A stretch of 64,000 bases of DNA. Source: an uncultured Acidimicrobiia bacterium. GTDB lineage: Bacteria > Actinomycetota > Acidimicrobiia > Acidimicrobiales > JACDCH01. This document shows positions 418 to 51,691 of this stretch, one piece after another; the first letter of the stretch is position 1; each line of letters opens with the position of its first letter. The stretch is taken from contig CAVRIR010000002.1 of the NCBI GenBank assembly GCA_963721305.1, positions 174,000 to 237,999 of the forward strand, read 5' to 3'. A program made the position numbers and the translations under genes. Under the pieces are notes generated by a model. The model did no database searches. It saw only the letters and a program-made list of their open reading frames with translations, and was not told where the DNA came from.

Positions 418-1308
418 ATGCGCGTGTTCGTCACTGGCGCGTCCGGATTCATCGGCACGGCCGTCGTCCCCGAGCTGCTCGCGGCGGGACACGAGGTCGT
501 CGGATTGGCGAGATCAGACGAGTCCGCCGCGACGATCGCCGCGATGGGCGCGGAGGTGCAGCGAGGCGATCTCGAAGATCGAGACATCTTGCGAGCGGCC
601 GCGGCCGCGTCCGAGGGCGTGATCCATCTCGGGTTCGTGCACGACTTCAGCCGCTTCGACAACTCGGTGCGGATCGACGCCGAAGCCATCGAGACGTTCG
701 GAGACGCGCTCGAGGGGTCCGATCGGCCGCTCGTCATCGCGTCGGGGATCGCGGCGGTCCGAGAAGGCGACTCGCCGGCGACCGAACGCGACGCGCCGGC
801 TCCTGTGTTCCCGCGCGCTCCGGCAGCACAGCGCACGATCGCGTTCGCCGATCGAGGTGTCCGCTCGTCCGTGGTCCGGCTTCCACCGACGGTTCACGGC
901 GAGGGCGACGCCGGCTTCGTGCCGACGTTGATCAACATCGCGAGGGACAAGCACGTGTCGGGCTACATCGGCGACGGAGCCAGCCGCTGGCCGGCCGTGC
1001 ATCGGTTCGATGCCGCGACGTTGTTCGCGCTTGCGCTGACGAAAGCGCCGGCAGGATCAGTGCTGCACGCGATCGACGACGAAGGCGTGCCGACTCGCGT
1101 GATCGCCGAGGTCATCGGACGTCATCTCGACGTCCCTGTCACGAGCATCGGCCCCGACGAAGCAATGAACCACTTCGACTGGCTCGGCATGTTCTTCGGC
1201 TTCGACGTGCCCGCATCCAGCGATCTCACACGCGCGTTGCTCGGCTGGGAGCCGACGCAACCGAAGCTCATCGAGGACCTCGAAAAGGGCCACTACTTCG
1301 ACGGTTGA
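418..1308 (+). CDS. NAD-dependent epimerase/dehydratase (extended SDR) oxidoreductase
   Basis: N-terminal VFVTGASGFIG Rossmann motif, VIHLGF, RLPPTVHG; RBS GGAGG upstream. Confidence 0.9.
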   Translation: MRVFVTGASGFIGTAVVPELLAAGHEVVGLARSDESAATIAAMGAEVQRGDLEDRDILRAAAAASEGVIHLGFVHDFSRFDNSVRIDAEAIETFGDALEGSDRPLVIASGIAAVREGDSPATERDAPAPVFPRAPAAQRTIAFADRGVRSSVVRLPPTVHGEGDAGFVPTLINIARDKHVSGYIGDGASRWPAVHRFDAATLFALALTKAPAGSVLHAIDDEGVPTRVIAEVIGRHLDVPVTSIGPDEAMNHFDWLGMFFGFDVPASSDLTRALLGWEPTQPKLIEDLEKGHYFDG

Positions 1309-1358: not shown

Positions 1359-2190
1359 TCACACGCACCGGTTCCGGATGGTGCCGATGCCCTCGATCCA
1401 CGACTCGAGCACGTGGCCTGACCGCAGGAATCGAGGAGGCTTGCGCGTCGCGCCGACCCCCGCAGGGGTTCCGGTGAAGATGATGTCGCCTGGGAGCAAC
1501 GGCAGTACGGCGGAAAGCTCGGCGACCAGCTGCGGGACGTCGAAGATGAGGTCCGACGTCCGCGCGTCCTGCACGGTCTCGCCGTCGACCGAGCAACCGA
1601 GCGCGAGGTCGTCGGGATTCGCGAACTCGTCGAGGGTCACGACCCACGGTCCCATCGGTCCGTACCCGCGACGCGACTTGCCGAGCGAGAACTGCGACAC
1701 CGGCCGCGAACTGAAGGGTGCCGGTCGCTGATGTCCTGACCGACGGTGAGACCGGCGACGTGTGACCACGCGTCCGCCTCGCGCGACCCGATCGGCCCGC
1801 GTGCCGATGACGACGACCAGTTCGACCTCCCAGTCGACGGTGTCCTCGACGATCTCGACGTCGTCGAACGGACCCGCCAGCGACGCCGGGAACTTGGTGA
1901 ACGTCGCCGGCACGCTCGGCACGGCCATGCCCGACTCCTCGGCGTGGCTGCGGTAGTTGAGGCCGATCGCGAACACCTGGCGCGGCGCCGGCACCGGGCA
2001 ACCGAGGCTGCCGTCGGTGAGCGTTGCCGTGCCCGACGGTGACACCCGCGGCCCAAGCGGCGAAAGCCGTCCAGTCGTCGTACACACGCATCGGGTCGGG
2101 GCCGAACCGCCCGCCCGACACCTCCTCGATGTCGGCGACGGCGTCGTCGATGACGAGCACGGCACGTCCGTCATGGTTGGCGAGCTTCAT
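1359..2190 (-). CDS. Fumarylacetoacetate hydrolase family protein (frameshifted)
   Basis: MKLANHDGRAVLV start in one frame; AIGLNYRSHAEE, VDWEVELVVVIG, GDIIFTGTPAGVG in another; stop at 1359. Confidence 0.85.
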
Positions 2191-3699
2191 GTGGTGGCTC
2201 CTCGTGCGAGGTGTTGGCGGAGATCGTCGAGCAGCGCTGACGCCGATGCGGCGGTCGTCGCGGTGCCATAGAGATAGAAGTCAGGACGGGACAGCGCGTA
2301 CTTCGTGTCGTGCTCCTGGAACCAGCGCTCGAACGTCGGATCGGGTTCGGTCAATGCGACGATCGCGCCGCCGATCGTGGTGAACCAGCCGCGCTGCTCG
2401 TCACCGACGCCGGACGGATCGACGTCGACGACCACGAGCCGCCAGCCGTTGCCGTGCACTTCGTCGAAGGGCCGGCCCCCGACCTTGCCCTGCACGAACT
2501 GCCGTCCCGCGTGCGGCGCGGTCGGATGGATGAAGCCCGCGTCGAGGTCGGGCAGTCCGGGTGCCGGCGCCGGTTCGTCACCGACGCCCGAGGCCATGGC
2601 CTCGTCGCGCGCGGCGGCCTCCGCAGGGTCCGGAACGCATATGACCTTGCCGAGCTCCATCGAGAACTCGATCGCAGCCCGCGCGCTCGGCAACCGCTCC
2701 TCTTCGTACGAGTCGAGCAGCCGATCGGGCGCGCGGCCGTCGAGAACGAGGTCGAGCTTCCACGCAAGGTTGGCCGCGTCGCGCAAGCCCGAACACATGC
2801 CCTGCCCTGCGAACGGGGGCATGAGATGGGCTGCATCACCGGCGATCAGCACGCGTTCGGCGCGCCACTGCTCCGCACAACGAGCATTGAACGTGTACAC
2901 GGCGTGCCGTTCGAGTCGGGCATTGCCCGGATGCACATCCCACGGCGCGAGCAAGTTCCCACGCGCGTGCTTCGTCGTTGAGCTCGTCGAGGGACTCGTG
3001 CGGCAGACGCATGAACTCCCACCGACGCCGACCGGGACCGCCCGACACCACGGTCGTCGGCCGCGCCGGATCGCAGATCTGCAGGTTGATCGGATCGAAG
3101 ACGCGCGGTTCGTCGAGGAGCACGTCGACGATGAGCCAGTCGTAGAAGAACCCGAGGTCGGTGACGGGGAGGTCGAGCTGGTCCGTACCGTGCTGTTGGC
3201 GCCGTCGCAGCCGACGACGTAGCTCGCCGTGGAGGTCGAACCGTCGGCGCCGCGCACGACCGCTCTCGACTCCGACTGGTCGATCCCGGTCACCTCGACA
3301 CCACGGCGCACGCGCGACGCCGAGCTCGACGGCGCGCCGGTCGAGCAGCGCCTCGAGCCTCGGCTGGTTGAACATCGACGATGCCGGCCAGCCCGATGGC
3401 CCGTCCCCCGTTCGGCCGAAGCGCAACAGCGTCGTGCCCGCCGCGTTGCGCCACTCGTAGATGTCGGCGGGCTCGCTGATCGCACGTACCTCGTCGCCGA
3501 TGCCACATGACTGCAGGATGCGGCCGACTTCATGGTCGAAGTGCACCGCACGCGGTAGCGGGTACGGCTCGGGCCAGCGTTCGATCACCGTCACCGACCG
3601 GTCGAGTTGCGCGAGGAAGATCGCGAGCGCGCTCCCGACCGGTCCGCACCCGACGATGGCGACGTCGGCGTCACGATCGGCGTCGAGGTCGCGCGTCAT
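2187..3699 (-). CDS. FAD-dependent aromatic hydroxylase, MhpA/PheA class (frameshifted)
   Basis: DVAIVGCGPVGSAL, PRAVHFDHE, VVGCDGANSTVR, LIAGDAAHLMPPFAGQGMCSGLRDAANLAWKL spread over several frames. Confidence 0.85.
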
Positions 3700-4575
3700 C
3701 CCTGCCGCAGCGGCTGGTGGCCCCACGCGCTGATGCGGTCGTAGCTTGCGGTTGCCGTCCCAGTGGTCGCCGACGACTTTCGCGCCGTGGCCGACCTCGA
3801 CCTGGAAGCCGGCCGGACTCGCGACGTAGAAGCTGAACATCCCGTCGTTGTCGTGGCGTCCGAGACCGTTGGGTATCGGCAGCCCCGATGCCCACGCACG
3901 ATCGAACGCGGCACCGACGTCGTCTCGATCCTTGGTCTCGAACATCACGTGATGCAGGTGCTGCGGCAGCTCGAATGGCGCTCGCGCCAGTGCGATCGTG
4001 TGGTGTCGTGCGTTGCAGTGGTAGAAGCGGACCTCGAGCTCGATGCCCTCGGCGATCTCCATCTCCAGCCAGTCCGACTGCTCGAGCCCGAGCCCTTCCA
4101 CGACGAAGCGGTGTGACTCGTCGAACGCGGTTGTCGCGAAGACGGCGTGCCCGAAGCCGACATGCTGGGTGAGGAACCCGCCCGGCACGAGCGGCGATGC
4201 GAACGGGGTCGATGCCTCGGCGAGGCCGACCGCGACCTCGACCGGGACGCCCCAAGGGGCGGCCGAGCGGACGAGCCGTCCGACGCCGCGGGCTCGCGCA
4301 TCGTCGTCGGATCCGTCGATGGCCTCGAAGCCCGCGGCGCGAAGGCGGGCGGCGGCGCGAGCCAGTGCGTCGTCGTCGACGGCTTCGAAGCCGACGAAGA
4401 CAGCGTCGTTGGCGTCACCCTGCTGCACGATCACGCGCCGCGCTTTGTCGTCGTCGCGCCAGGTATGAGCGCCGTCCCCGGGCACGAGCCCGATCACGTT
4501 CCCGAAGAACGAGTCGAGCGCGGCAGGGTCAGGCACCTCGATACCGAGGTATGCGAGCTCGATGTCGCGATTCAT
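3696..4575 (-). CDS. Extradiol ring-cleavage dioxygenase, BphC/HsaC-like VOC family (frameshift near 3' end)
   Basis: LAYLGIEV, GFGHAVF, FYHCNARHHTIA, LHHVMFE, LGRHDNDGMFSFYVASPAGFQVEVG: Fe(II) His/His/Glu ligands present. Confidence 0.9.
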
Positions 4576-5477
4576 GTTCTGCCTTCTTTCGTGAAGAGCC
4601 GCTCGGAGTTCGCGCACAACGTCGAGACGAGATCGTCGACGCCGTCGATGCGCGTGGCAAGGCCAGCAGCGACCGGCTCGGGGGTGAACGGATAGTCGCT
4701 GCCGTAGTGCAGATGGTCGATGGTGGTGATCGTCAGAAGCGCGTCGAGCTGTCGAGGCACCGAGTAGCCGGCCAGATCGAAGTGCAGCCGCCCGAGGTCG
4801 CGCATCACATCGACGTCCGGGCTGACCAGACTGCCGAACGCGGTGACCCGATCGGCGAGCAGCGGGAGTGCCGCCCCGGCGTGCGGGACGATCAGCTCGA
4901 GATCCGGGTTGACGGCGACGGTGCCGCTCAACACCAGATCGACGATCGCGCGGGTCGTGTCGAGGAGGAACTCGATCAGCGGGCGCGGCCGGCCGAACGA
5001 CGTCTGCTCCCAGCACACGGGCGACGTCGGATGCACCAACACCCGTGCGCGGCGACGACCGAGCTCGCGCAGCACGGGGGCGAACAAGACATCGCCGAGG
5101 TAGGTGCCGTCGAAGTTCGTGAGCAGGACGAAACCGTCCGCGTCGAGTTGGTCGCAAGCGAACGCGATCTCGGCCATCGCGCTGTCGACGTCCGGCAACG
5201 GGAGCGATGCCAGGAGACCGAATCGACCGGGATGATCGACGACGGCACGACGTCCGTCCTCGTTCACCGCACGCGCCAGCGCTGCGTCGCCGAGCACACC
5301 GGGAGAGGAGACCGACAAGTACGAGCGCGCGATGTCCAGGCGGTCCATCAGTGCGACGTGTTCTGCGGCGGACCACTCCGGGACGTACGGCATGCCGTCC
5401 GGCGCCTCGTGTCCCGACTGCCGGAGCGCTTCTCGGTAGAGCTCCGGCAGGTAGTGCGCGTGGATGTCGATCTTCAC
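4572..5477 (-). CDS. Amidohydrolase_2 family protein, 6-methylsalicylate/orsellinate/resorcylate decarboxylase-like
   Basis: GTG start; KIDIHAHY (HxH), LVHPT, IVPHAGAALP, HFDLAG, LHYGSDYPFTP. Confidence 0.85.
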   Translation of the reverse strand: MKIDIHAHYLPELYREALRQSGHEAPDGMPYVPEWSAAEHVALMDRLDIARSYLSVSSPGVLGDAALARAVNEDGRRAVVDHPGRFGLLASLPLPDVDSAMAEIAFACDQLDADGFVLLTNFDGTYLGDVLFAPVLRELGRRRARVLVHPTSPVCWEQTSFGRPRPLIEFLLDTTRAIVDLVLSGTVAVNPDLELIVPHAGAALPLLADRVTAFGSLVSPDVDVMRDLGRLHFDLAGYSVPRQLDALLTITTIDHLHYGSDYPFTPEPVAAGLATRIDGVDDLVSTLCANSERLFTKEGRT

Positions 5478-6430
5478 AGGCCGAGCGTGCCGACCCAGTC
5501 GACCAACGTGTCGACGTAGAGATCCGGTTCGGTGCCGTGCATCGAGTGCGCGACCGCCGGGAACGAGCGGTAGTCGACGGTGACGCCGACTTCGCGCAGC
5601 AGCGCCTGCACGCGCTCGGCTTGCACATCGGCGAGCGCGCCCATCAGGACGCCCGTGCTCTCGTCGACGACGCGCATGTGATGCGTGAGGAGCACGTTCG
5701 ACACCTTCACGCTCCGGAGCATGCGCTCGTGATCGCACGACGCCGAGACGGTTCCGCTCCAGAACGCGCGTCCCCACTCGGGGTCGTATTCCTTCAACTC
5801 CTGCCGAGGCTCATCTGGGATCGGCATGAGCTGCAACCATTGCGGCAACCGATCAGGCGCGGCCGCGCGCATCTCGTCCCACGCGCCGATGGACCATTGG
5901 TCCCCTAGGTACGTGCTCCACAGATCGAAGATCGGGCCGATCGACTGCTGGATGCCCGGCGCGATCGCGGGGCGCACCTCCGAGGAGAACAGAGGCGGAT
6001 CCTCGTAGCACGCGGCCACGACCTGGCCCGGCTTCGCGTACGCCGACAGCCACGCGGACAGCACGCCACCGGACGACAAGCCACTCACGATCGCCGGCCG
6101 TGCGATCACGATGTCCATGAAGCGGACCAGATCGTTGCCCATGTTGTCGAGCGTGTAGCGACCCGGCGTGCGCGTGCTGCGGCCCTGCCCGCGAAGGTCG
6201 ACGGCGAACACCTCGAAGTGCTCGGCGAGGCGAGGCAGCGCCGCTTCGTACCCCCACCACGACTCGGTTTGTCCGGGGATCAACAGCAACGCGGGGTTCG
6301 CCGGGTCACCGGCGGTGGCGTGGTTGAGCTCGACCTCACCGAGGGCGACCAGCTTCTCGGGGAAGGCGTGCGTGACGTAAGTCACGTCAGGGGCGTGCGG
6401 GCCGTACCGACTTCGATGTTCGTTCGCCAT
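5474..6430 (-). CDS. Alpha/beta hydrolase resembling ZenA zearalenone lactonohydrolases
   Basis: GLSSGG nucleophile elbow, YEDPP, AHSMH; YTLDNMGNDLVRF, LGDQWSIG and LKEYDPEWGRAF match my recollection of Rhodococcus ZenA (not verified by search). Confidence 0.8.
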   Translation of the reverse strand: MANEHRSRYGPHAPDVTYVTHAFPEKLVALGEVELNHATAGDPANPALLLIPGQTESWWGYEAALPRLAEHFEVFAVDLRGQGRSTRTPGRYTLDNMGNDLVRFMDIVIARPAIVSGLSSGGVLSAWLSAYAKPGQVVAACYEDPPLFSSEVRPAIAPGIQQSIGPIFDLWSTYLGDQWSIGAWDEMRAAAPDRLPQWLQLMPIPDEPRQELKEYDPEWGRAFWSGTVSASCDHERMLRSVKVSNVLLTHHMRVVDESTGVLMGALADVQAERVQALLREVGVTVDYRSFPAVAHSMHGTEPDLYVDTLVDWVGTLGL

Positions 6431-6492
6431 GCCGCGCCCAGCCTGGCACTGCGTCGTGGATCCTGAGCGAAATCACAGCTTTCTCTGTCCGC

Positions 6493-6516
6493 ACTCTGGG
6501 CCACAGACCCCAGAGT
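6493..6516. promoter_or_regulatory. 8-bp inverted repeat in divergent promoter region
   Basis: ACTCTGGG-N8-CCCAGAGT between the hydrolase operon and the exporter operon. Confidence 0.25.
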
Positions 6517-6550
6517 CGACTGTCATGGACAATCGAATCGAGTACGCGCT

Positions 6551-7516
6551 GTGAGCGCGATGCCCCCGTATCCGCCCGAGGACGGCGCCGGCCCGGCCAT
6601 CACTCCCTCCCCCGAGCCTGCGCCGTCCTCGTCGCGCCCGGCGTGGCGCACTTGGGTGATCGCGGCCGTCCTTTCGGCTGTCGCGGCGGGCCTCATCGGA
6701 TTCGTCGTCAGTCGTTCCGGTAACTCCAGCGCGACGACCCTCGCCGGCACGGGCAGCAGCGCGTCGAGCAACAGCGATAGCGGCTCCGGCAACGGCGCGC
6801 CTTCCGGGTTCCGCAACGGCACGAGAGGAACCGTCACGAAGATCGACGGTTCGGACATCACGATCCAGTCGACCGACCGCAACGGCACGGCGTCGACGGT
6901 GACCGTTCGCACCGCTTCGGACACGACGTTCACGAAGTCGGCGACCGGAAGCGTCAGCGACGTGAAGACCGGCGACAACGTGCTGGTCAGCGGAACGGAT
7001 TCTTCCGGCACGGTTGCCGCCACGTCCATCACCGACAACGGCGACATGACATTTGGTGGCCGCGGCGCGAACCGCAACGGGTCGCAACCTGGCACGCCGC
7101 CGGACAACAGCAACTCCACGCCTCCCAACAGTGGCGGGTTCACGCCACCGTCCGGGGGGAACGGGGGCAACGGCAACGGCCGTCCCGGCGGCCCCGGCGG
7201 TGGCGGGTTCCAAGCCGGACAGGTCACCGCGGTCAACGGCTCGACGCTCACCATCTCGACCTTCGACGGCAGTTCGGTCACCGTCACCACGGACGGCTCG
7301 ACGACAGTCAACGTGACCCAGACCGCCTCGATCGCCGACGTGAAGACGGGCGACACGATCATGGCGACCGGCACGAACGACAACGGCGTCGTCACCGCGA
7401 CCTCGGTTCGGATCGGCGGCGGTGGGTTCGGCGGCGGCGGGTTCGGCGGCGGCTTCCCCGGCGGTAACCCCCCGGGCGGCGCGCCGAACAGTGACGCCAA
7501 CGGCGCGGAGAACTGA
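6551..7516 (+). CDS. Membrane-anchored Gly/Ser/Thr-rich protein with two DUF5666-like repeats
   Basis: One TM (WVIAAVLSAVAAGLIGFVV), two GxVTxIxGSxxTI...DVKTGDxxxxSG repeats, GGGFGG tail. Confidence 0.65.
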   Translation: MSAMPPYPPEDGAGPAITPSPEPAPSSSRPAWRTWVIAAVLSAVAAGLIGFVVSRSGNSSATTLAGTGSSASSNSDSGSGNGAPSGFRNGTRGTVTKIDGSDITIQSTDRNGTASTVTVRTASDTTFTKSATGSVSDVKTGDNVLVSGTDSSGTVAATSITDNGDMTFGGRGANRNGSQPGTPPDNSNSTPPNSGGFTPPSGGNGGNGNGRPGGPGGGGFQAGQVTAVNGSTLTISTFDGSSVTVTTDGSTTVNVTQTASIADVKTGDTIMATGTNDNGVVTATSVRIGGGGFGGGGFGGGFPGGNPPGGAPNSDANGAEN

Positions 7517-7521
7517 TCGCG

Positions 7522-9645
7522 ATGGCGCGTGTCAAAGCGCTGCTCACCAAGCCGTTCGTGGTCATGCCGCTCCTCGCGGTCGTCGTGCTCGCCGGCTGGG
7601 CCGTGTTCCAGGCCCATTCGTCGTCGAGCGACGCGGCCGCGCAGCCAACCGACCAGACCGTCGCGGTGACGAGCGGGACGATTGCAGAGACGGTGTCGGG
7701 GCAGGGCACCGTTGCTTCCTCGCAGTCCGCCGACCTGAACTTCGGATCGTCCGGCACGGTGACGGCGGTAAACGTGAAGGCCGGTCAGAAGGTCAGTGCG
7801 GGTGACGTGCTCGCCCAGATCGACTCGACCTCACTGCAAGCCGCCCTGAGCACGGCGCAGTCGTCGGAAGCGCAGGCGGAAGCCAAGCTCTCCGACGACG
7901 AGTCGGCCGGCGCGTCGGCCGCGCAACTGACCGCCGACCAGACGAGCGTGACGACCGCGCAGGACAAGGTCGCCACCGCGTACACGGCGCTCGGAGGCGC
8001 GCAGCTCGTTGCGGCGTTCGACGGCACCGTTTCGCAGGTGAACCTGACGGTGGGCGAGCAGCTCGGCAGCAGCGGTACCGGCGGCACGAACACGTCGGGC
8101 AGCCAGAGCCCATCCGGCGGATCGACGTCGGCGCTCGGCTCGAGCTCCACGAACGGCTCGAGCAGCGGAAACGGCTCGAGCGGCGGAAACGGATCGAACA
8201 GCACGGGTGGCTCGAACACAGGCAGCAGCTCGACCCCTGAGCTCCAGGTGATCACCGCGTCGTCGTTCACGGTGCAGCTCGGCTTCGACGCAAGTGACGT
8301 CGCCAAGATCGCCGACGCGCAACCGGCAACGATCCAACTGTCGACGACGAGCTCGAACACGAGTGGTTTCCCCGGCGGCGGCTTCGCCGGAGGCGGAGGG
8401 TTCCCGGGTGGCGGAGGTTTCGCCGGCGGCGGGTCTGCCGGAGGCGGGACCCAAGGCGGGAACAGCACGTCCTCCAACGGCACCACCAACACCGTGACCG
8501 GAGCATCGAGCGCCACCGGCACGGTCACCGACGTCGGGACCGTGGCCACCGTCAGCTCGGGGGTGGCGAAGTATCCCGTCACCGTCACCTTCTCGGATGA
8601 CACCGGAACCTTCAATCCCGGCGCGACTGTTGTGGCTCGCATCACGTACGCGGAGAAGCAGAACGCGCTCCAGGTGCCGGCCGCGGCGGTCACGACGACC
8701 AACGGCGTGTCCACTGTGACGGTGAACGACAACGGCTCGAAGCAGACACAGACCGTGACCACGGGCTTGACGTCCGGGAACATGGTCGAGATCACGTCCG
8801 GTCTCCAAGCAGGCGACCAAGTCGTCATCTCGTTCCCGAGCTTCCAGTTCGGCGGCAACCGCGGGACGACGGCCGGCGGGAGCGGGTCGACCGCTCGCAC
8901 CGGCACAGGAACGCGCGGCGGCGAAGGCGGCCAGAATTCGAGCGCCGTCATCGAGCTCGTGGGCGTCACCAAGACGTATCGATCGGGCTCCCTCGAGGTC
9001 GAAGCGCTGCACGGCATCGACATGCGCGTCGACGAAGGCGAGTTCGTGGCCATCGTCGGACCGTCGGGCTCAGGGAAGTCGACGCTGATGCACATCGTCG
9101 GCTGCCTCGACGTGCCCTCGACCGGACAGCTGCTGCTCGCCGGTCAGGACGTCGCCGACTTCGATGAGGATCGGCTGGCGGACGTCCGCAACCGCTACAT
9201 CGGCTTCGTGTTCCAGCAGTTCAACTTGCTGCCGTACATGACCGCGGTGCGCAACGTCGAGCTGCCGCTCGTCTACGCCGGCGTGGAGCCGGCGAAACGA
9301 CGTGAGCTCGCACGCGCGAGCCTCGAACTGGTCGGCCTCGCCGAACGGGGTGAGCATCGTCCCGGCGAGCTGTCCGGCGGCCAGCAACAGCGAGTCGCGA
9401 TTGCGCGTGCGCTCGTCACCGAGCCGGCATTGCTTCTTGCGGACGAACCCACTGGGAACCTGGACGCGGCGTCGACGCGCGACATCCTGAACCTGCTGAC
9501 CGACCTGCATCGCGCCGGCCGGACGATCGTCCTCATCACGCACGAGGCGAGCGTCGCGGCGCGTGCGAGCCGCGTCGTGCACCTCTTCGACGGCCACATC
9601 GCGGACGACGAAGACGCGCTCGCAGGCGCGGGGCCGACGTCATGA
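7522..9645 (+). CDS. Membrane-fusion/periplasmic adaptor (MacA/HlyD-like) fused in frame to a MacB/LolD-type ABC ATPase
   Basis: N-terminal TM, biotinyl-lipoyl-like [20 protein letters not shown] and hairpin; C-terminal [33 protein letters not shown]. Confidence 0.8.
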
Positions 9646-10874
9646 CCTGGCGCGACACCATCCGAACCGCGGGCGAGTCGGTCCGTTCCCACCGGTTGCG
9701 TTCCGCACTGACGATGCTCGGGATCATGATCGGGATCACTGCGGTGATCCTCAGCGTCGGCATCGGCAACGGCACCAAGGCCGAGGTCCGCGACCAGATC
9801 AACGAGCTCGGGACGAACGTCCTCGTGGTGTCCCCCGGGAGCAGCACGACGACGAGCGGTGTGCGGGGCGGCTTCGGCAGCTCCTCCACCCTCACCATGC
9901 AGGACGCGCAAGCGTTGAACGACCGCACCGTTGCCCCAGACATCGAGTCGGTCGCGGCAACCGCGTCGACCAACGCCGAGCTCGCGGCGGGATCGACGAA
10001 CTGGACAACGCAGCTTCTGGGCACCACGCCGTCGTGGCAACAGGTCCGCTCGCGCGGCGTCACCAGCGGACGGTTCATCACCGACGCCGACGTGCAGAAC
10101 GCTGCACCTGTCATCGTGCTCGGCCCCGACACCGCGCAGGAGCTCTTCGGCGGCCGCAACGCCGTCGGTCAGACAGTGATCTACAACGGCACGACCCTTC
10201 AGGTGGTAGGCGTCCTGCAGTCGCTCAGCTCATCGGACAACGCTTCCAACAACGACCTCGCGATCGTTCCGTTCACCACCTACTCGCAGGCATTGGTCGG
10301 CGGTCAGAACCGCAACTCGGTGTCGTCGATCTACGTCAAGGCCACGTCCGAGGGGACGCTGAGTGCTGCCTATCAAGAGAGCGACGCGTTGCTGGTCAAC
10401 GTGCATCGTTTGAGCTCGACCAGCTCCGCTGACTTCACGATCGCGACGGAGCAATCGATCCTCTCGGCCGCGACGACCGTGAACAAGACGATGAGCCTGA
10501 TGCTCGCCGGCATCGCGATCATCTCGCTCCTCGTCGGGGGCATCGGTGTCATGAACATCATGCTGGTGTCCGTCACCGAGCGGATCCGCGAGATCGGGCT
10601 GCGCAAGTCCTTGGGAGCGCGACCGCGTCTCATCCGTCGTCAGTTCTTGGTCGAGGCGAGCGCGCTCGGGTTCGCCGGTGGCCTACTCGGTGTCGTGGTC
10701 GGCATCGCGATCGCGGCCGTGGTCCCCCACTTCGTCGACACCCGCTTCATCCTCTCGGCGAGCGCCTCCATCGCCGCGATCGCGATCGCGATCGGCGTCG
10801 GCGTGCTGTTCGGCGTCTACCCCGCGTCGCGCGCTGCTCGCCTCGCCCCCATCGACGCGCTCAGGAGCGAGTGA
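9642..10874 (+). CDS. ABC transporter permease (MacB/FtsX family)
   Basis: [13 protein letters not shown]; [33 protein letters not shown]; [17 protein letters not shown]. Confidence 0.92.
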
Positions 10875-36376: not shown

Positions 36377-39207
36377 TCAGGTGGGGAGATCGACGTGCGA
36401 GAGCTGGGTCCGCGAGGTCACGCCGAGCTTCACGAACACCTTGCGGAGGTGGTACTCGACGGTGCTGGTGGTGATGTAGAGCTGCGCCGCGATCTCGCTG
36501 GTTGCGCGCGCCGGATGCCGCGAGCCGGGCGATCTGCGCCTCCTGGGGCGTGAGGACGTCCGGCGGCGCGGAACGGCTCCGGACGTGCTCACCGGTCGCG
36601 GCCAGCTCGGCGCGCGTCCGTGCCGCGAAGCCGGAAGCGCCGATGGTCTCGAAGAATTCGAGCGCCTCGTGCAGCGGGTCACGCGCTTCCTTGCGGCGTC
36701 GTTCTCGTCGCAGCCACTCGCCGTACAGCAGCTGCGTCCTGGCCGTCTCGGTCGCGACCGTGGACCGTGACAGCTCGTCGAGGGCGAGACGGAACTGTTC
36801 GTCGGCGTCGTCGCCGTTCGCGACGAGCGCAAGCCCGCGCGCGAGCAGGCCACGAGCCCAGGGTGTGTCGGCCGCGGACGCTCGTTGCGACAACCGGTCG
36901 AGAGCCCGTCGCGCGAGCTCCGCGTCGTCGCCGCGGGTCGCGGCCTCGATGACGTCCGGCAACGCGATCGTGCCCAGCACGACGGTGTCGTGATCGACGA
37001 GATGTCGCGCCGCTCGCAGCGCGGCGTCGTACCGGCCGGCGCCGAGCTCGAGGACGAGAAGCGCCGCGTACGCGTGATCGATCCCGAGGCCCTGTCCGCG
37101 CTCGTGCGCGTCTTGCATCATGCGCCGTGCTCCGGTTCGCGCCGCTTCGTCGTTGCCTTGCCACGCGTCGCGAAGGACCTGCGCGGGAGCGGGTGACCCG
37201 AGCAGCCCTCGTGACCCAGTGAGCGTGACGACCTCCTCGATCTCCGCGAGGTGCGAGGCAGCAGACCCGAGACGTCCCTGGAGGACGTCGAGCCAGCTGC
37301 GCATGCTGAGCGCAAGCGGCAGCGCGGAGAGCGCCCCGATGCGGCGGCCGACCAGCGCCCACTGGTCGGCCAGGTCGGCCCAGGCGCGGTCGTCGAGAAC
37401 CTCGGCCGCCGCCATCGTCGTGTCGTAGTAGACGACGTGGACTCGCCGTCCGGCGACCGCCTGAAGATGTGTGTGGTCTGCGACCGCGGTGGCCACGGCG
37501 GAGCGCAGCATCTGGAGGGCGGCGACCTGCTCGCCCCGCAGCCGCGCTGCGAACCCCGACACGAGCTGCGCGACCGGCTCCGCGATGTCGCACCGGGTCA
37601 CGGCATCGCCGGCCGCAGCGGCGATCGCTTGTCGAGTCGGCTCCTCGATGAGGTGCCCGCCGGTCAGCGTCGCCGCCATGGCCGCGACGCACGCGCCGAC
37701 GGCGACGTCGGATTGGCCGGCATCGATCGCGGGCAGCGCGTCGGGCATCACCGCGGCGGCCTGGCGGACGTCGCCCGTGACGATGTGGATCAACGCCTCG
37801 GTCCACGCCGCCTCCGCCCGATGCCGTTCGCCGAGCCCGCTCGCTCTGGCCTGACCGAGGATTTCGAGCGCCCGCGAGCTGCGGCCGCCGACGAGCTCGG
37901 CGCGTGCCGCCTCGAGCAGCCGCTCGGTGGCTCGTTCGCGGTCCGGTGTCAGCTCGGCGGCGCGCCACAGGAAGAAGGCCGCGGCGGACGCACCGCCTCG
38001 CTGGCGGGCCCGCTCCGCCGACGCCTCCAACGAGCAGGCGATGTCCTCGTCCGGTTCCGTGACGGACGCGCCGAGGTGCCACGCGCGTCGATCGGCGTCG
38101 AGATCCGTGTCGAGGACCTCGGCGAGAACCGCGTGGGCGCGCCGCCGATCGGCCGCAGGCGCGGCGTAGTAGACGGCAGATCGCACGAGCGGATGGCGGA
38201 ACTCGACCTTCGGGGTGAAGGTGACGAGCCCGCTCGCCTCGGCGTTCGCGACCGCGTCGTCCCACGACACGCTGCCAAGGGCCTCCGCGGCGCGCCGCAA
38301 GGAGCATCGGATCGCCCAACCGTTCGGCCGCGGCGACGAGCAGCAAGCATCCGCGCGGCGGTGTCGAGTGCTCGTACCCGCGTCCGCGAAGATGCCGGCG
38401 AGGCGCTCGCCGATGCGGCAGCGGGTCGGGCAACGGCGTGCACACCGCGAAGCTGCTCAGGTGTCAACACCGCAGGCAGCTCGACGAGCGCAAGCGGGTT
38501 GCCGTCGGTCGCGGCGACGAGACGGCTGGCGACGACCTCGTCAACCGGTCCTTGTGCACAATCGGTCAGCAGCTGGTGAGCCTCTGGTGGTGACAGCCCG
38601 CCGAGGGTGACCGAGCGGAGGCCCTCGAACCGCGCCACCGCGTCCGGGATGTCGCGGCTCGTGAGGATGGAGGCGACGCGCTCGGCGTGGAGACGGCGGC
38701 CCACGAACGACAACACCATCGCCGACTCGTCGTCGACCCACTGCGCGTCGTCGATGACGGCGAGCACTGGCTGCGCACGGGCTGCCTCCTCGGCGAGACC
38801 CAGGACGGCGAGACCGACGCGAAACGGGTCGAGCGCAGCGTGCTCCGCGTCTGACACCGAGCACCGCATCGAGGACCGTTCGTTGCGGATCGGCGAGCGC
38901 GTCGATGCAGTCGTGGAGCAGGAGCGCGAGTTGGTGGACCGCTGCGTACCCGAATCCCATCTCGGACTCGACGCCGACCACGTGGACGACACGGAAGCCG
39001 GATGCGACTTCGATCGCGTAGTCGACCAACGCCGACTTGCCGATGCCGGGCGGACCACGGAACAGGAGCGCCCCGGCGGTGCCCCGCTCGGCGTCTCGGA
39101 GAAGCGTCATCGATGGCGGCTCGTTCGTCGGCGCGGCCGACGAGGAGCTGGCTCGCCTGCGTCACTTGTCCGGGATCGTCCACGTCCGTCACGTCACCCC
39201 CGTCCAC
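36377..39207 (-). CDS. AAA-ATPase/LuxR (MalT-like) transcriptional regulator (several frameshifts)
   Basis: LVGRADE, GPPGIGKS, VIDDAQWVD, TDGNPLAL; C-terminal LTPQEAQIARLAA..TVEYHLRKVFVKLGV. Confidence 0.85.
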
Positions 39208-49873: not shown

Positions 49874-49884
49874 GTTCGCTGTCG

Positions 49885-51020
49885 ATGCCCGCCGACGAGG
49901 TGCGCGTGACGTCGTGGTCCGACCACGTCGGCGCGCGCAACGCGTCGATCGAGTCCACCGGCCGGTGGCGAACGATCCGGACGCTCGACGGGGGCGGTCC
50001 CGAGTTCACCCTTGACGACGGACGCTCGATCGTGTCGTTCGCGTCGAACGACTACCTCGGGCTGACGCAGCACCCTTCGGTCGTTGCCGCGGCACACGCG
50101 GCCATCGACCGGTTCGGTACCGGCTCCGGCTCGGCGCGCCTGATCGTCGGCGGGCGGCCGATCCACCGAGAGCTCGAGGACGAGCTCGCGTCGTGGAAGG
50201 GCACCGAAGCGGCGCTGCTGTTCCCCACCGGCTTCGCCGCGAACCTCGGCGTGCTCACGACGCTCGCAACCGATGGGGTGCTGATCGTGAGCGACGAGCT
50301 CAACCACGCGTCGATCATCGACGGCTGCCGGCTCTCGCGCGCCGAGGTCGCGATCGCTCGCCATGCTGACGTCGACCATGTCCACGAGTTGCTGGCCGGT
50401 CACGACGGACCGTCGATCGTGGTGACGGACACGGTGTTCTCGATGGACGGCGACGTCGCCCCGTTGGATGACCTCGTCGAGGTGTGCGGGCGCCACGACG
50501 CACTGCTCGTGCTCGACGAAGCGCACGCGGTGCTCGGCCCCGCTGGTCCGGATGACGCGCGACGAGCGGGGTCACTGCGCTGCGGGTCGGGACGCAATCG
50601 AAGACACTCGGCGCGCTCGGCGGTTTCGTCGCCGGACCGCGCGCGTTCGTCGACCTGATCGTCAACGCCGCACGACCGTTCATCTTCACGACGGCGCCGA
50701 CTCCGGCGGACACCGCAGCCGCGCTGGCGGCTGTGCGGGTGCTGCGCTCGGACGAAGGCGATCGGCTCGTCGCGCGACTGCGCGCGCATGTCGAACGGAT
50801 CGCTCCGGGACATCCGTCGCCCATCGTCCCCGTGGTGCTCGGCGACGAACGACGTTCGCTCGACGCGTCCGCCCGCCTACTGGACGAGCATGGCCTGCTC
50901 GTGCCCGCGATCCGTCCTCCGACGGTCGCACCCGGGACGTGCCGGCTGCGCATCGCGCTGTCGGCCGCGCACACCGACGACCAAGTCGACTGCTTGGCCA
51001 AGGCGATCGCCGACCTGTGA
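49885..51020 (+). CDS. bioF: 8-amino-7-oxononanoate synthase (frameshift near 50540)
   Basis: FASNDYLGL, SDELNHASIIDGCRL, DTVFSMDGD, LDEAHA, IRPPTVAPGTCRLR. Confidence 0.9.
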
Positions 51021-51691
51021 CGCTCGTCGTCTGCACGGGAACCGCTACCGAGATCGGCAAGACGTGGGTGGGGGCGGCCGTGCTGTCCGAGTGGCGCGCC
51101 GACGGCGTGACCGTGGCGGCGCGCAAGCCGGTGCAGTCCTTCGACAGCGACGACACCGGTCCGACCGACGCCGACGTCCTCGCTTCCGCAACGGGCGAAC
51201 ATCCCGACGACGTCTGTCCCGGCCACCGGTCCTACGGCGTCGCGATGGCACCGCCGATGGCCGCCGCAGTCATCGGCAGCGAACCCTTCACGATCGCCGA
51301 TCTCGCCGGCGAGATCCGATGGCCGTCCCCCGAGCCCGCCATCCGGTGGGTCGAGACCGTCGGCGGGCCGCGGTCTCCCATCGCGTTCGACGGTGACTCG
51401 AAGGACCTGTGCGACGCGCTCGAGCCGGACCTCGTCGTCCTCGTCGCCGATGCGGGACTCGGCGCCATCAACTCGGTCCGGCTGTGCGTCGCCGCGCTGG
51501 ACCGTCACCGCGTCGTCGTGATCCTGAACGGCTTCGATGCGGACGACGACCTCCACGCCCTGAACCTGGCGTGGCTCACCGACCGCGAGAGGCTCGGCGT
51601 GGCCACCTCCCCCGCCGAACTCCAGGTCATGTGCGGCGCCACAGCGCCGCACATGCACCAACATTCGCCGCCTAGCGGCGGGCTCCCATGA
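51017..51691 (+). CDS. bioD: Dethiobiotin synthetase
   Basis: TGTATEIGKT P-loop, RKPVQS, VETVGG, GLGAINS; 4-bp overlap with bioF. Confidence 0.9.
   Translation: MTLVVCTGTATEIGKTWVGAAVLSEWRADGVTVAARKPVQSFDSDDTGPTDADVLASATGEHPDDVCPGHRSYGVAMAPPMAAAVIGSEPFTIADLAGEIRWPSPEPAIRWVETVGGPRSPIAFDGDSKDLCDALEPDLVVLVADAGLGAINSVRLCVAALDRHRVVVILNGFDADDDLHALNLAWLTDRERLGVATSPAELQVMCGATAPHMHQHSPPSGGLP

Follow-up and report, generated by a model that had tools for sequence, protein, structure and literature searches.

The DNA analysed here is a 64-kb stretch (hereafter, the window; contig C2, 174000-237999) from the genome of an uncultured Acidimicrobiales bacterium, which amounts to 4.3 Mb in six contigs with ca. 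68% G+C and whose nearest relatives are metagenome-assembled genomes (MAGs) of uncultured Acidimicrobiia/Acidimicrobiales. The minus strand of the window carries, near its beginning, five consecutive and co-oriented genes for a ZenA-type lactonase, an amidohydrolase-fold decarboxylase, an extradiol dioxygenase, a flavin-dependent aromatic hydroxylase, and a protein of the fumarylacetoacetate hydrolase (FAH) family (Table 1). Read from the sequence, all four junctions are 4-bp stop/start overlaps, and the five genes probably form a translationally coupled operon. An earlier note on this DNA had described five co-oriented genes with four such overlaps and had given each product a family, down to the specific call of ZenA; coordinates and overlaps agree with the sequence, and every family assignment was borne out by Pfam or NCBIfam models or by matches to PDB sequences.

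TABLE 1 Genes, junctions, frame breaks, and boundaries of the five-gene operon (positions within the window)
Feature	Position	Strand	Description	Basis
ZenA-type alpha/beta-hydrolase lactonase/esterase (gene 1)	5474..6430	-	318 aa, intact	Homology
Amidohydro_2 (ACMSD-superfamily) putative 6-alkyl-resorcylate decarboxylase (gene 2)	4572..5477	-	301 aa, GTG start, intact	
BphC/HsaC-like extradiol dioxygenase, type I with two domains (gene 3)	3696..4575	-	~293 aa, one frame break	
MhpA-like FAD aromatic-ring hydroxylase of group A (gene 4)	2187..3699	-	~503 aa, three frame breaks	
FAH-family hydrolase, acylpyruvate/2,4-diketo-acid hydrolase-like (last gene)	1359..2190	-	~276 aa, four frame breaks	
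Lactonase/decarboxylase overlap	5477-5474	-	GTGA	Sequence
Decarboxylase/dioxygenase overlap	4575-4572	-	ATGA	Sequence
Dioxygenase/hydroxylase overlap	3699-3696	-	ATGA	Sequence
Hydroxylase/FAH overlap	2190-2187	-	ATGA	Sequence
Frame break, dioxygenase	near 3747		C-terminus	
Frame breaks, hydroxylase	near 3314, 3181, 2954		Three breaks	
Frame breaks, FAH gene	near 2034, 1783, 1722, 1698		Four breaks	
Upstream intergenic region of the operon	6431..6550	.		Alignment with eight relatives
Gly/Ser/Thr-rich secreted protein gene	6551-7516	+	Divergent, upstream boundary of the operon	
NmrA/epimerase-like gene	418-1308		Convergent, downstream boundary of the operon	

The first gene, present as a single copy in the source genome, matches Abhydrolase_1/6 in Pfam and aligns with the structures of ZenA, the zearalenone lactonase known in Rhodococcus erythropolis PFA D8-1 and Streptomyces coelicoflavus (8clt/8clu, E = 1.6e-110 over residues 15-316; 8cln, E = 9.2e-106); it is a full-length homologue of the Rhodococcus enzyme, with 56.5% identity. 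The catalytic triad of ZenA is Ser128-His303-Asp153, with the Asp placed after strand 6, its non-canonical oxyanion hole consists of Ser129 and Gln63, and the resorcylate ring is contacted by Phe177, Leu210, and Phe232 (PMC10913051). The window lactonase shares the triad (S119/D144/H295, aligned with Ser128/Asp153/His303), the position of the Asp, the Ser/Gln oxyanion pair (S120/Q54), and all three ring contacts including the stacking Phe (F168, L201, and F223), and differs in the cap, where Phe211 is replaced by Met. Among 84 relatives, Q54 and the residues of the triad never vary, and at least 90% of these relatives retain S120. Models of meta-cleavage-product (MCP) hydrolases did not fit: the HsaD model gave 22.5 bits (cut-off 400), confined to the N-terminal part, and PDB 1j1i matched with E = 1.4e-4. 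Judged by its sequence, gene 1 belongs to the ZenA zearalenone lactonase family. All eight soluble homologues assayed in the ZenA paper hydrolysed zearalenone; in the structures, the resorcylate ring is held firmly and the macrocycle loosely, and the authors propose other native substrates (PMC10913051).

The product of gene 2 is a member of Amidohydro_2 (PF04909, E = 2.2e-17, 64.2 bits) that none of the NCBIfam models matches. Its best PDB match is 2f6k (E = 9e-48), a structure without an assigned function, with which its DIHAH, HPTSP, PHAGA, and GSDYP motifs align; these motifs are kept in 46 relatives. The other characterised structural matches are all non-oxidative decarboxylases (LigW, ACMSD, IDCase, and gamma-resorcylate decarboxylase), each solved and characterised member being distant (E = 5e-11 or weaker). 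Gene 2 shares the Amidohydro_2 TIM barrel and the HxH...H...D metal motifs with the ACMSD-superfamily non-oxidative decarboxylases, which use ortho-hydroxybenzoates, such as gamma-resorcylate decarboxylase, LigW, and the fungal 6-methylsalicylate decarboxylase PatG. The automatic annotation of the Joint Genome Institute (JGI) names many of the 70-77% identical relatives "6-methylsalicylate decarboxylase," and this naming, together with the gene context, suggests a 2-hydroxy-6-alkylbenzoate such as hydrolysed zearalenone (HZEN), orsellinate, or 6-methylsalicylate as the putative substrate of gene 2.

Gene 3 combines the Pfam domains BphC_D1 and Glyoxalase, matches PDB 1han (E = 8e-55), and conserves the motifs GFGH, LHH.MFE, and FQ.E.G, whose position points to His-His-Glu as iron ligands. 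With 225.8 bits against the BphC equivalog model TIGR03213 (cut-off 366) and 158.8 bits against the HsaC model (cut-off 450), it can be classified by sequence as a type I extradiol dioxygenase that is not an equivalog of either. Gene 4 has an FAD_binding_3 domain with the motifs GxGxxG, GCDGANS, and GDAAH..PPFAGQG. Frame breaks divide it, and two open reading frame (ORF) translations (matched residues 8-125 and 193-449) scored 240.3 and 313.1 bits against the MhpA-like subfamily model NF004829, each under the cut-off of 390 and in sum above it. The last gene encodes an FAA_hydrolase protein (PF01557, E = 9e-51, 173 bits) that matches PDB 6v77 (E = 8e-87) and 8gsr (E = 1e-47). Its nearest named relatives are C-C hydrolases of 2,4-diketo acids (L-2,4-diketo-3-deoxyrhamnonate/2,4-didehydro-3-deoxy-L-rhamnonate hydrolase), and the domain has a carboxylate metal site, with the motifs DWEVE and GQD.SDR invariant among relatives.

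The lactonase was used as a query against a collection of species-representative genomes, which yielded 466 homologous stretches, and the best 80 of these (67-85% identity) were analysed with their flanks. Context classes were assigned by tblastn with the five proteins. This search, which the earlier note had proposed as a check, found the five-gene set in 31 of the 80 closest loci, in the same order in 25 and rearranged within 10 kb in 6. A further 6 loci contained a partial set, mostly at contig ends or with split genes, 14 had the lactonase-decarboxylase pair alone (mainly MAGs labelled Binatia or Deltaproteobacteria), and 29 had the lactonase with none of the other four genes nearby at an identity of at least 50%. 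In 41 of the 80 loci (the 25 colinear ones, the 14 with the pair only, and 2 truncated by contig ends), the decarboxylase gene comes immediately after that of the lactonase. The five-gene operon thus recurs across many soil Acidimicrobiia. Among 61 related genomes, 5 have both the lactonase and the hydroxylase and one genome has each alone, which lends weak support because four of the five belong to one genus.

A third arrangement was found in 6 of the 29 loci with the lactonase and none of the other four genes, namely, a vicinal oxygen chelate (VOC) dioxygenase, sometimes a short-chain dehydrogenase/reductase (SDR), an amidohydrolase 42-46% identical to that of the window, and then the lactonase. 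These loci (among them L067, L069, L072, L074, and L087 of our set) come from MAGs labelled Gammaproteobacteria/Pseudomonadales, Myxococcota, Acidimicrobiia, and Actinomycetota. Their VOC dioxygenase is 36-39% identical to the window dioxygenase, and neither a FAH nor an MhpA-like gene was detected within 10 kb.

The relatives also carry regulatory and accessory genes. A divergent TetR gene lies upstream of the cluster in 26 of 34 mapped loci, and the TetR-lactonase intergenic region contains a strongly conserved promoter with a TTGACA -35 box and an AT-rich block that could be the operator. This conserved block (at L016:9900-10000, and in the same region of L020, L024, L027, L034, L044, L051, and L057), in which TTGACA is accompanied by repeated AATCAG/CTGATC-like elements, is likely the promoter together with the TetR operator. 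Many full clusters run on past the FAH gene into a cytochrome P450 and/or a metallo-beta-lactamase (MBL)-fold (Lactamase_B_2) gene (L016:15083-17162; also L014, L044, L046, L048, L071, L073, and L078), products that may alter the side chain, carry out O-demethylation, or serve as a second hydrolase. Of the "candidate complete catabolic pathway" proposed by the earlier note, the five-gene set stands and the word complete goes too far, since most relatives add TetR, P450, and MBL-fold genes and the cleavage products need further metabolism.

A second grouping of similar genes surrounds zenA itself, the gene of the biochemically validated enzyme. On the Rhodococcus qingshengii plasmid NZ_CP089607, an alpha/beta hydrolase 100% identical to ZenA of R. 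erythropolis (8clt) over residues 44-328 is accompanied by an FAD aromatic-ring hydroxylase, IclR and GntR regulators, a FAH protein, a VOC dioxygenase, an acetoacetate-CoA ligase, an SDR, and an acetyl-CoA C-acetyltransferase (thiolase). As in the window, the lactonase is therefore grouped with a FAH protein (53% identical, over the full length, to that of the window), an extradiol-type dioxygenase of the VOC class, and an FAD aromatic hydroxylase. The gene order is different, however, the regulators, ligase, SDR, and thiolase have no place in the window operon, and no Amidohydro_2 gene was found within 9 kb on either side of zenA, unlike in the window, where the decarboxylase gene comes directly after the lactonase gene of this uncultured Acidimicrobiales. 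The lack of an Amidohydro_2 gene beside zenA matches what has been reported for Rhodococcus, in which the decarboxylation of HZEN to decarboxylated hydrolysed zearalenone (DHZEN) is spontaneous and slow and further catabolism is slow as well (PMC10913051). The ZenA paper does not discuss the neighbours of zenA and names no downstream enzyme (PMC10913051), a November 2025 review likewise treats the decarboxylation as spontaneous, gives no downstream enzyme, and mentions no decarboxylase, dioxygenase, or ring cleavage for zearalenone, and literature searches on the downstream zearalenone pathway, on alkylresorcinol catabolic genes, and on orcinol-pathway genes returned nothing relevant; in this literature the earlier statement that the bacterial steps beyond ZenA hydrolysis lack a description holds.

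From these assignments, a route can be proposed for the operon. The ZenA-type lactonase would open the ester or lactone and release a 2,4-dihydroxy-6-alkylbenzoic (6-alkyl-resorcylic) acid, which the Amidohydro_2 enzyme would decarboxylate to a 5-alkylresorcinol, in place of the slow spontaneous step from HZEN to DHZEN reported for Rhodococcus. The MhpA-like hydroxylase would then add a hydroxyl ortho to a ring hydroxyl and adjoining the alkyl chain, giving an alkyl-benzenetriol. Proximal extradiol cleavage of the BphC type, adjoining the alkyl-bearing carbon, would follow, and the extra hydroxyl would permit tautomerisation to a 2,4,6-trioxo acid. Finally, the FAH enzyme would hydrolyse the beta-diketone, most likely to pyruvate and a 3-oxo acid; these products are suggested because the closest FAH relatives with a named function liberate pyruvate from 2,4-diketo acids and because an acetoacetate-CoA ligase and a thiolase are part of the Rhodococcus cluster. 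The alternative products would be a fatty acid and acetylpyruvate, as in the orcinol pathway of Pseudomonas. The five genes include no MCP hydrolase, hydratase, aldolase, or acetaldehyde dehydrogenase, and with the first three missing a triketo-acid route would fit better than the classical route through a catechol and 2-hydroxy-6-oxo-6-phenylhexa-2,4-dienoate (HOPDA).

The proposed route would follow the logic of the classical orcinol pathway, a peripheral funnel being joined to a meta-cleavage module of the orcinol type, and would not represent a new principle. In Pseudomonas putida, Chapman and Ribbons are reported to have described in 1976 how an alkylresorcinol is converted by a flavin hydroxylase to trihydroxytoluene, by extradiol cleavage to a 2,4,6-trioxo acid, and on by C-C hydrolysis, free orcinol reportedly yielding acetate and acetylpyruvate through two hydrolases. 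Acetylpyruvate hydrolase activity is of the kind performed by FAH-family enzymes. This pathway was defined biochemically and is not known to have been assigned to genes. The enzyme classes match those of the window operon, which differs in having a single FAH gene and, upstream, the steps of ester opening and decarboxylation. The Mhp (MhpA, MhpB, MhpC, and MhpD) and Bph/Hsa operons likewise pair a flavin ortho-hydroxylase with proximal extradiol cleavage of an alkyl-substituted diol; in contrast to them, the window operon has no MCP hydrolase, aldolase, or dehydrogenase, its dioxygenase stays under the BphC and HsaC cut-offs, and the extra hydroxyl would lead to a triketo acid for the FAH enzyme.

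Three of the five genes are interrupted in the deposited sequence. DNA alignment with seven relatives revealed eight single-base indels specific to the window between 1359 and 4575, seven extra bases and one missing, which fall in the dioxygenase, hydroxylase, and FAH genes (Table 1) and leave the lactonase and decarboxylase genes uninterrupted; the frameshifts that had been suspected earlier in these three genes are thus real features of the deposited sequence. Break positions were taken from the DNA alignment, as tblastn with stop-to-stop ORFs of relatives gave misleading off-frame matches. When the breaks were read through, none of 74 invariant columns was altered in the dioxygenase and none of 145 in the hydroxylase, and the FAH protein showed no real change in 101 columns, its four mismatches being residues omitted from the stitched query. 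The intact lactonase and decarboxylase gave the same result (0/72 and 0/62). In bacterial pseudogenes, we assume, eight neutral indels are normally accompanied by several-fold more substitutions, ca. 9 to 18 of them at invariant positions.

The genome was then viewed as a whole by counting frame-switch candidates, defined as same-strand switches not at stop codons in a codon-usage Viterbi segmentation. This method was chosen because shadow ORFs swamp ORF-based clustering of neighbours in GC-rich DNA, and it can merge adjacent genes into one cluster. The source genome has 737 candidates, equivalent to 17 per 100 kb. In the loci of relatives, with the type of sequencing inferred from contig names, the rate was 4.7 per 100 kb in short-read MAGs (360 kb) versus 24 per 100 kb in long-read MAGs (670 kb). 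Orthologues of the five genes were split between frames in 13 of 112 long-read cases versus 1 of 113 short-read cases (Fisher p = 7e-4), and intact orthologues are present in short-read MAGs, for instance, at loci L016, L018, and L029. Within 40 nt of the candidates, CGCGC is enriched 1.41-fold and CGCGCG 1.78-fold, and two of the eight local breaks (~3314 and ~1783) create a CGCGC/CGCGCG context. These two breaks have the same form, with GTCGCGCG in the window versus GTCGAC or GTGGAC, then G, in relatives. A simple miscall at a methylated GTCGAC motif is not supported, since the motif shows no genome-wide depletion (7654 copies, or 178 per 100 kb versus 156 in short-read relatives) and no enrichment at frame-switch sites (97 observed versus 96.9 expected), which leaves the weaker CGCGC/CGCGCG enrichment. 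A uniform error model was rejected as well (47 clusters of at least four candidates within 3.2 kb versus ~3 expected), and programmed frameshifting is not credible because the eight events, in three genes, share no slippery motif.

Other frame switches were seen elsewhere. A BioF-like 8-amino-7-oxononanoate synthase gene (49879-51017, plus strand), directly upstream of a BioD-like gene (51017-51685), appears split near 50559, probably by another consensus error. A large gene for a LuxR-family ATPase-type regulator (36380-39095, minus strand) lies in four frame segments, with switches near 36498, 38429, and 38853, inside a run of eight candidates at 32.4-40.5 kb of the window. The densest hot spots of the genome are on contig C6 (57753-78026, ~67 candidates in 20 kb) and contig C5 (1879-11296, 29 in 9 kb); they may correspond to low-coverage or strain-variable regions, to foreign DNA with other codon usage, or to true gene decay.

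Taken together, these data incline us to read the operon as one for the breakdown of esters or macrolactones of 2,4-dihydroxy-6-alkylbenzoic (beta-resorcylic/orsellinic-type) acids, for instance, zearalenone-class fungal polyketides, with frame breaks that are probably consensus errors. Several observations pull the other way. Substrate, regiochemistry, and step order are inferred from homology and gene context, the 29 loci with none of the other four genes indicate that the ZenA family is not bound to the pathway everywhere, and the dioxygenase and hydroxylase of the zenA cluster, only 27-28% identical to those of the window, are analogues and not orthologues. At 6431-6550, the alignment with eight relatives showed neither the TTGACA promoter and AT-rich block nor an adjoining divergent TetR gene, and no orthologue of TetR, P450, or the MBL-fold protein was found at the window operon or anywhere in the source genome, which makes the window copy a minimal version of five genes, preceded by an upstream region that is different and unrecognised. 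The frame-switch candidates are strongly clustered, contrary to a simple error model, and rpoC and dnaE are intact, which means that errors are not uniform across the genome. In addition, the eight breaks are confined to the last three genes, and the 1.86 kb of genes 1 and 2 has none (~p = 0.03 if evenly spread). The breaks, the missing accessory genes and promoter, and the clustering alongside intact large essential genes would also fit an operon whose three downstream genes are truly decaying and in which only the lactonase-decarboxylase pair is kept, as a two-gene detoxifying module like that of the Binatia and others, where the pair stands alone in 14 loci. We hold such decay to be unlikely, if far from negligible. 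The broken genes have no substituted invariant column, although eight neutral indels should have brought several-fold more substitutions on the assumption given above, and they contain neither in-frame stops nor larger deletions; seven of the eight events are 1-bp insertions, the opposite of the usual deletion bias. Because no invariant residue is altered, because frame switches are in excess throughout the genome, to a degree similar to that in long-read MAGs, and because other long-read MAGs, unlike short-read MAGs, also have these genes split, we consider it quite likely that the eight breaks are consensus errors of a long-read assembly and that the operon is intact in the organism. The window copy is nevertheless a poor template because of them.

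With an intact operon, the natural substrate might still lie among other hydroxybenzoate esters, such as lichen or fungal depsides, simple orsellinate esters, or 6-alkylsalicylate esters, which would refine the proposal rather than contradict it. The tight grip of ZenA on the ring and loose grip on the macrocycle, with the other native substrates proposed for it (PMC10913051), the naming of the decarboxylase relatives after 6-methylsalicylate, the Met in place of cap F211, and the hundreds of homologues in soil MAGs (the 466 stretches) are in line with this variant. However, every soluble homologue in the published assays accepted zearalenone (PMC10913051), and a mono-hydroxy substrate of the salicylate type would give an ordinary HOPDA and need the MCP hydrolase that the operon does not have, so that we regard it as rather improbable. 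The genes could also be read as a generic Mhp/Bph-type operon for meta-cleavage of phenols, in which the alpha/beta hydrolase would serve as MCP hydrolase and the FAH protein as hydratase or isomerase, while a fission product would be the substrate of the amidohydrolase, given that the NCBIfam match of the hydroxylase is to an MhpA-like subfamily, the dioxygenase is nearest to BphC, and classical meta operons include an alpha/beta hydrolase and a hydratase of the FAH fold. This seems very improbable to us: the hydrolase stays far below the HsaD cut-off and reaches ~1e-110 against ZenA, with the unusual Asp position and the Gln oxyanion of the latter, its gene forms a pair with that of the decarboxylase in loci devoid of a dioxygenase, aldolase and acetaldehyde dehydrogenase genes are missing, and the amidohydrolase matches decarboxylases only and nothing of the LigI/LigJ type.

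Divergent from the operon, at 6551-10874 on the plus strand, lie the genes for a Gly/Ser/Thr-rich protein that is secreted or anchored, an ABC ATPase of 707 aa in which HlyD-like and MacB-type parts are fused, and an FtsX-like permease. This trio resembles an export system with no relation to catabolism; in five other loci, a homologue of the HlyD-like/MacB fusion protein recurs near the cluster.

As to its significance, the operon may, at about even odds, be the first gene-level account of the bacterial breakdown of resorcylic acid lactone mycotoxins beyond ZenA, with a dedicated HZEN/alkylresorcylate decarboxylase and gene candidates for the orphan meta-cleavage of alkylresorcinols of the orcinol type, widespread in uncultured soil Acidimicrobiia and assembled independently in Rhodococcus, around zenA. 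Feed enzymes in commercial use already include ZenA, whose products HZEN and DHZEN are regarded as end points and whose subsequent decarboxylation step is described as spontaneous. If the proposal is true, the operon would provide enzymes for full detoxification or biosensing and gene candidates for the catabolism of alkylresorcinols such as orcinol, olivetol, and cereal alkylresorcinol. It would also explain how polyketides of the zearalenone class and related ones from fungi or lichens are cleared from the environment by soil bacteria, and would give the abundant uncultured Acidimicrobiia a concrete role in carbon cycling.

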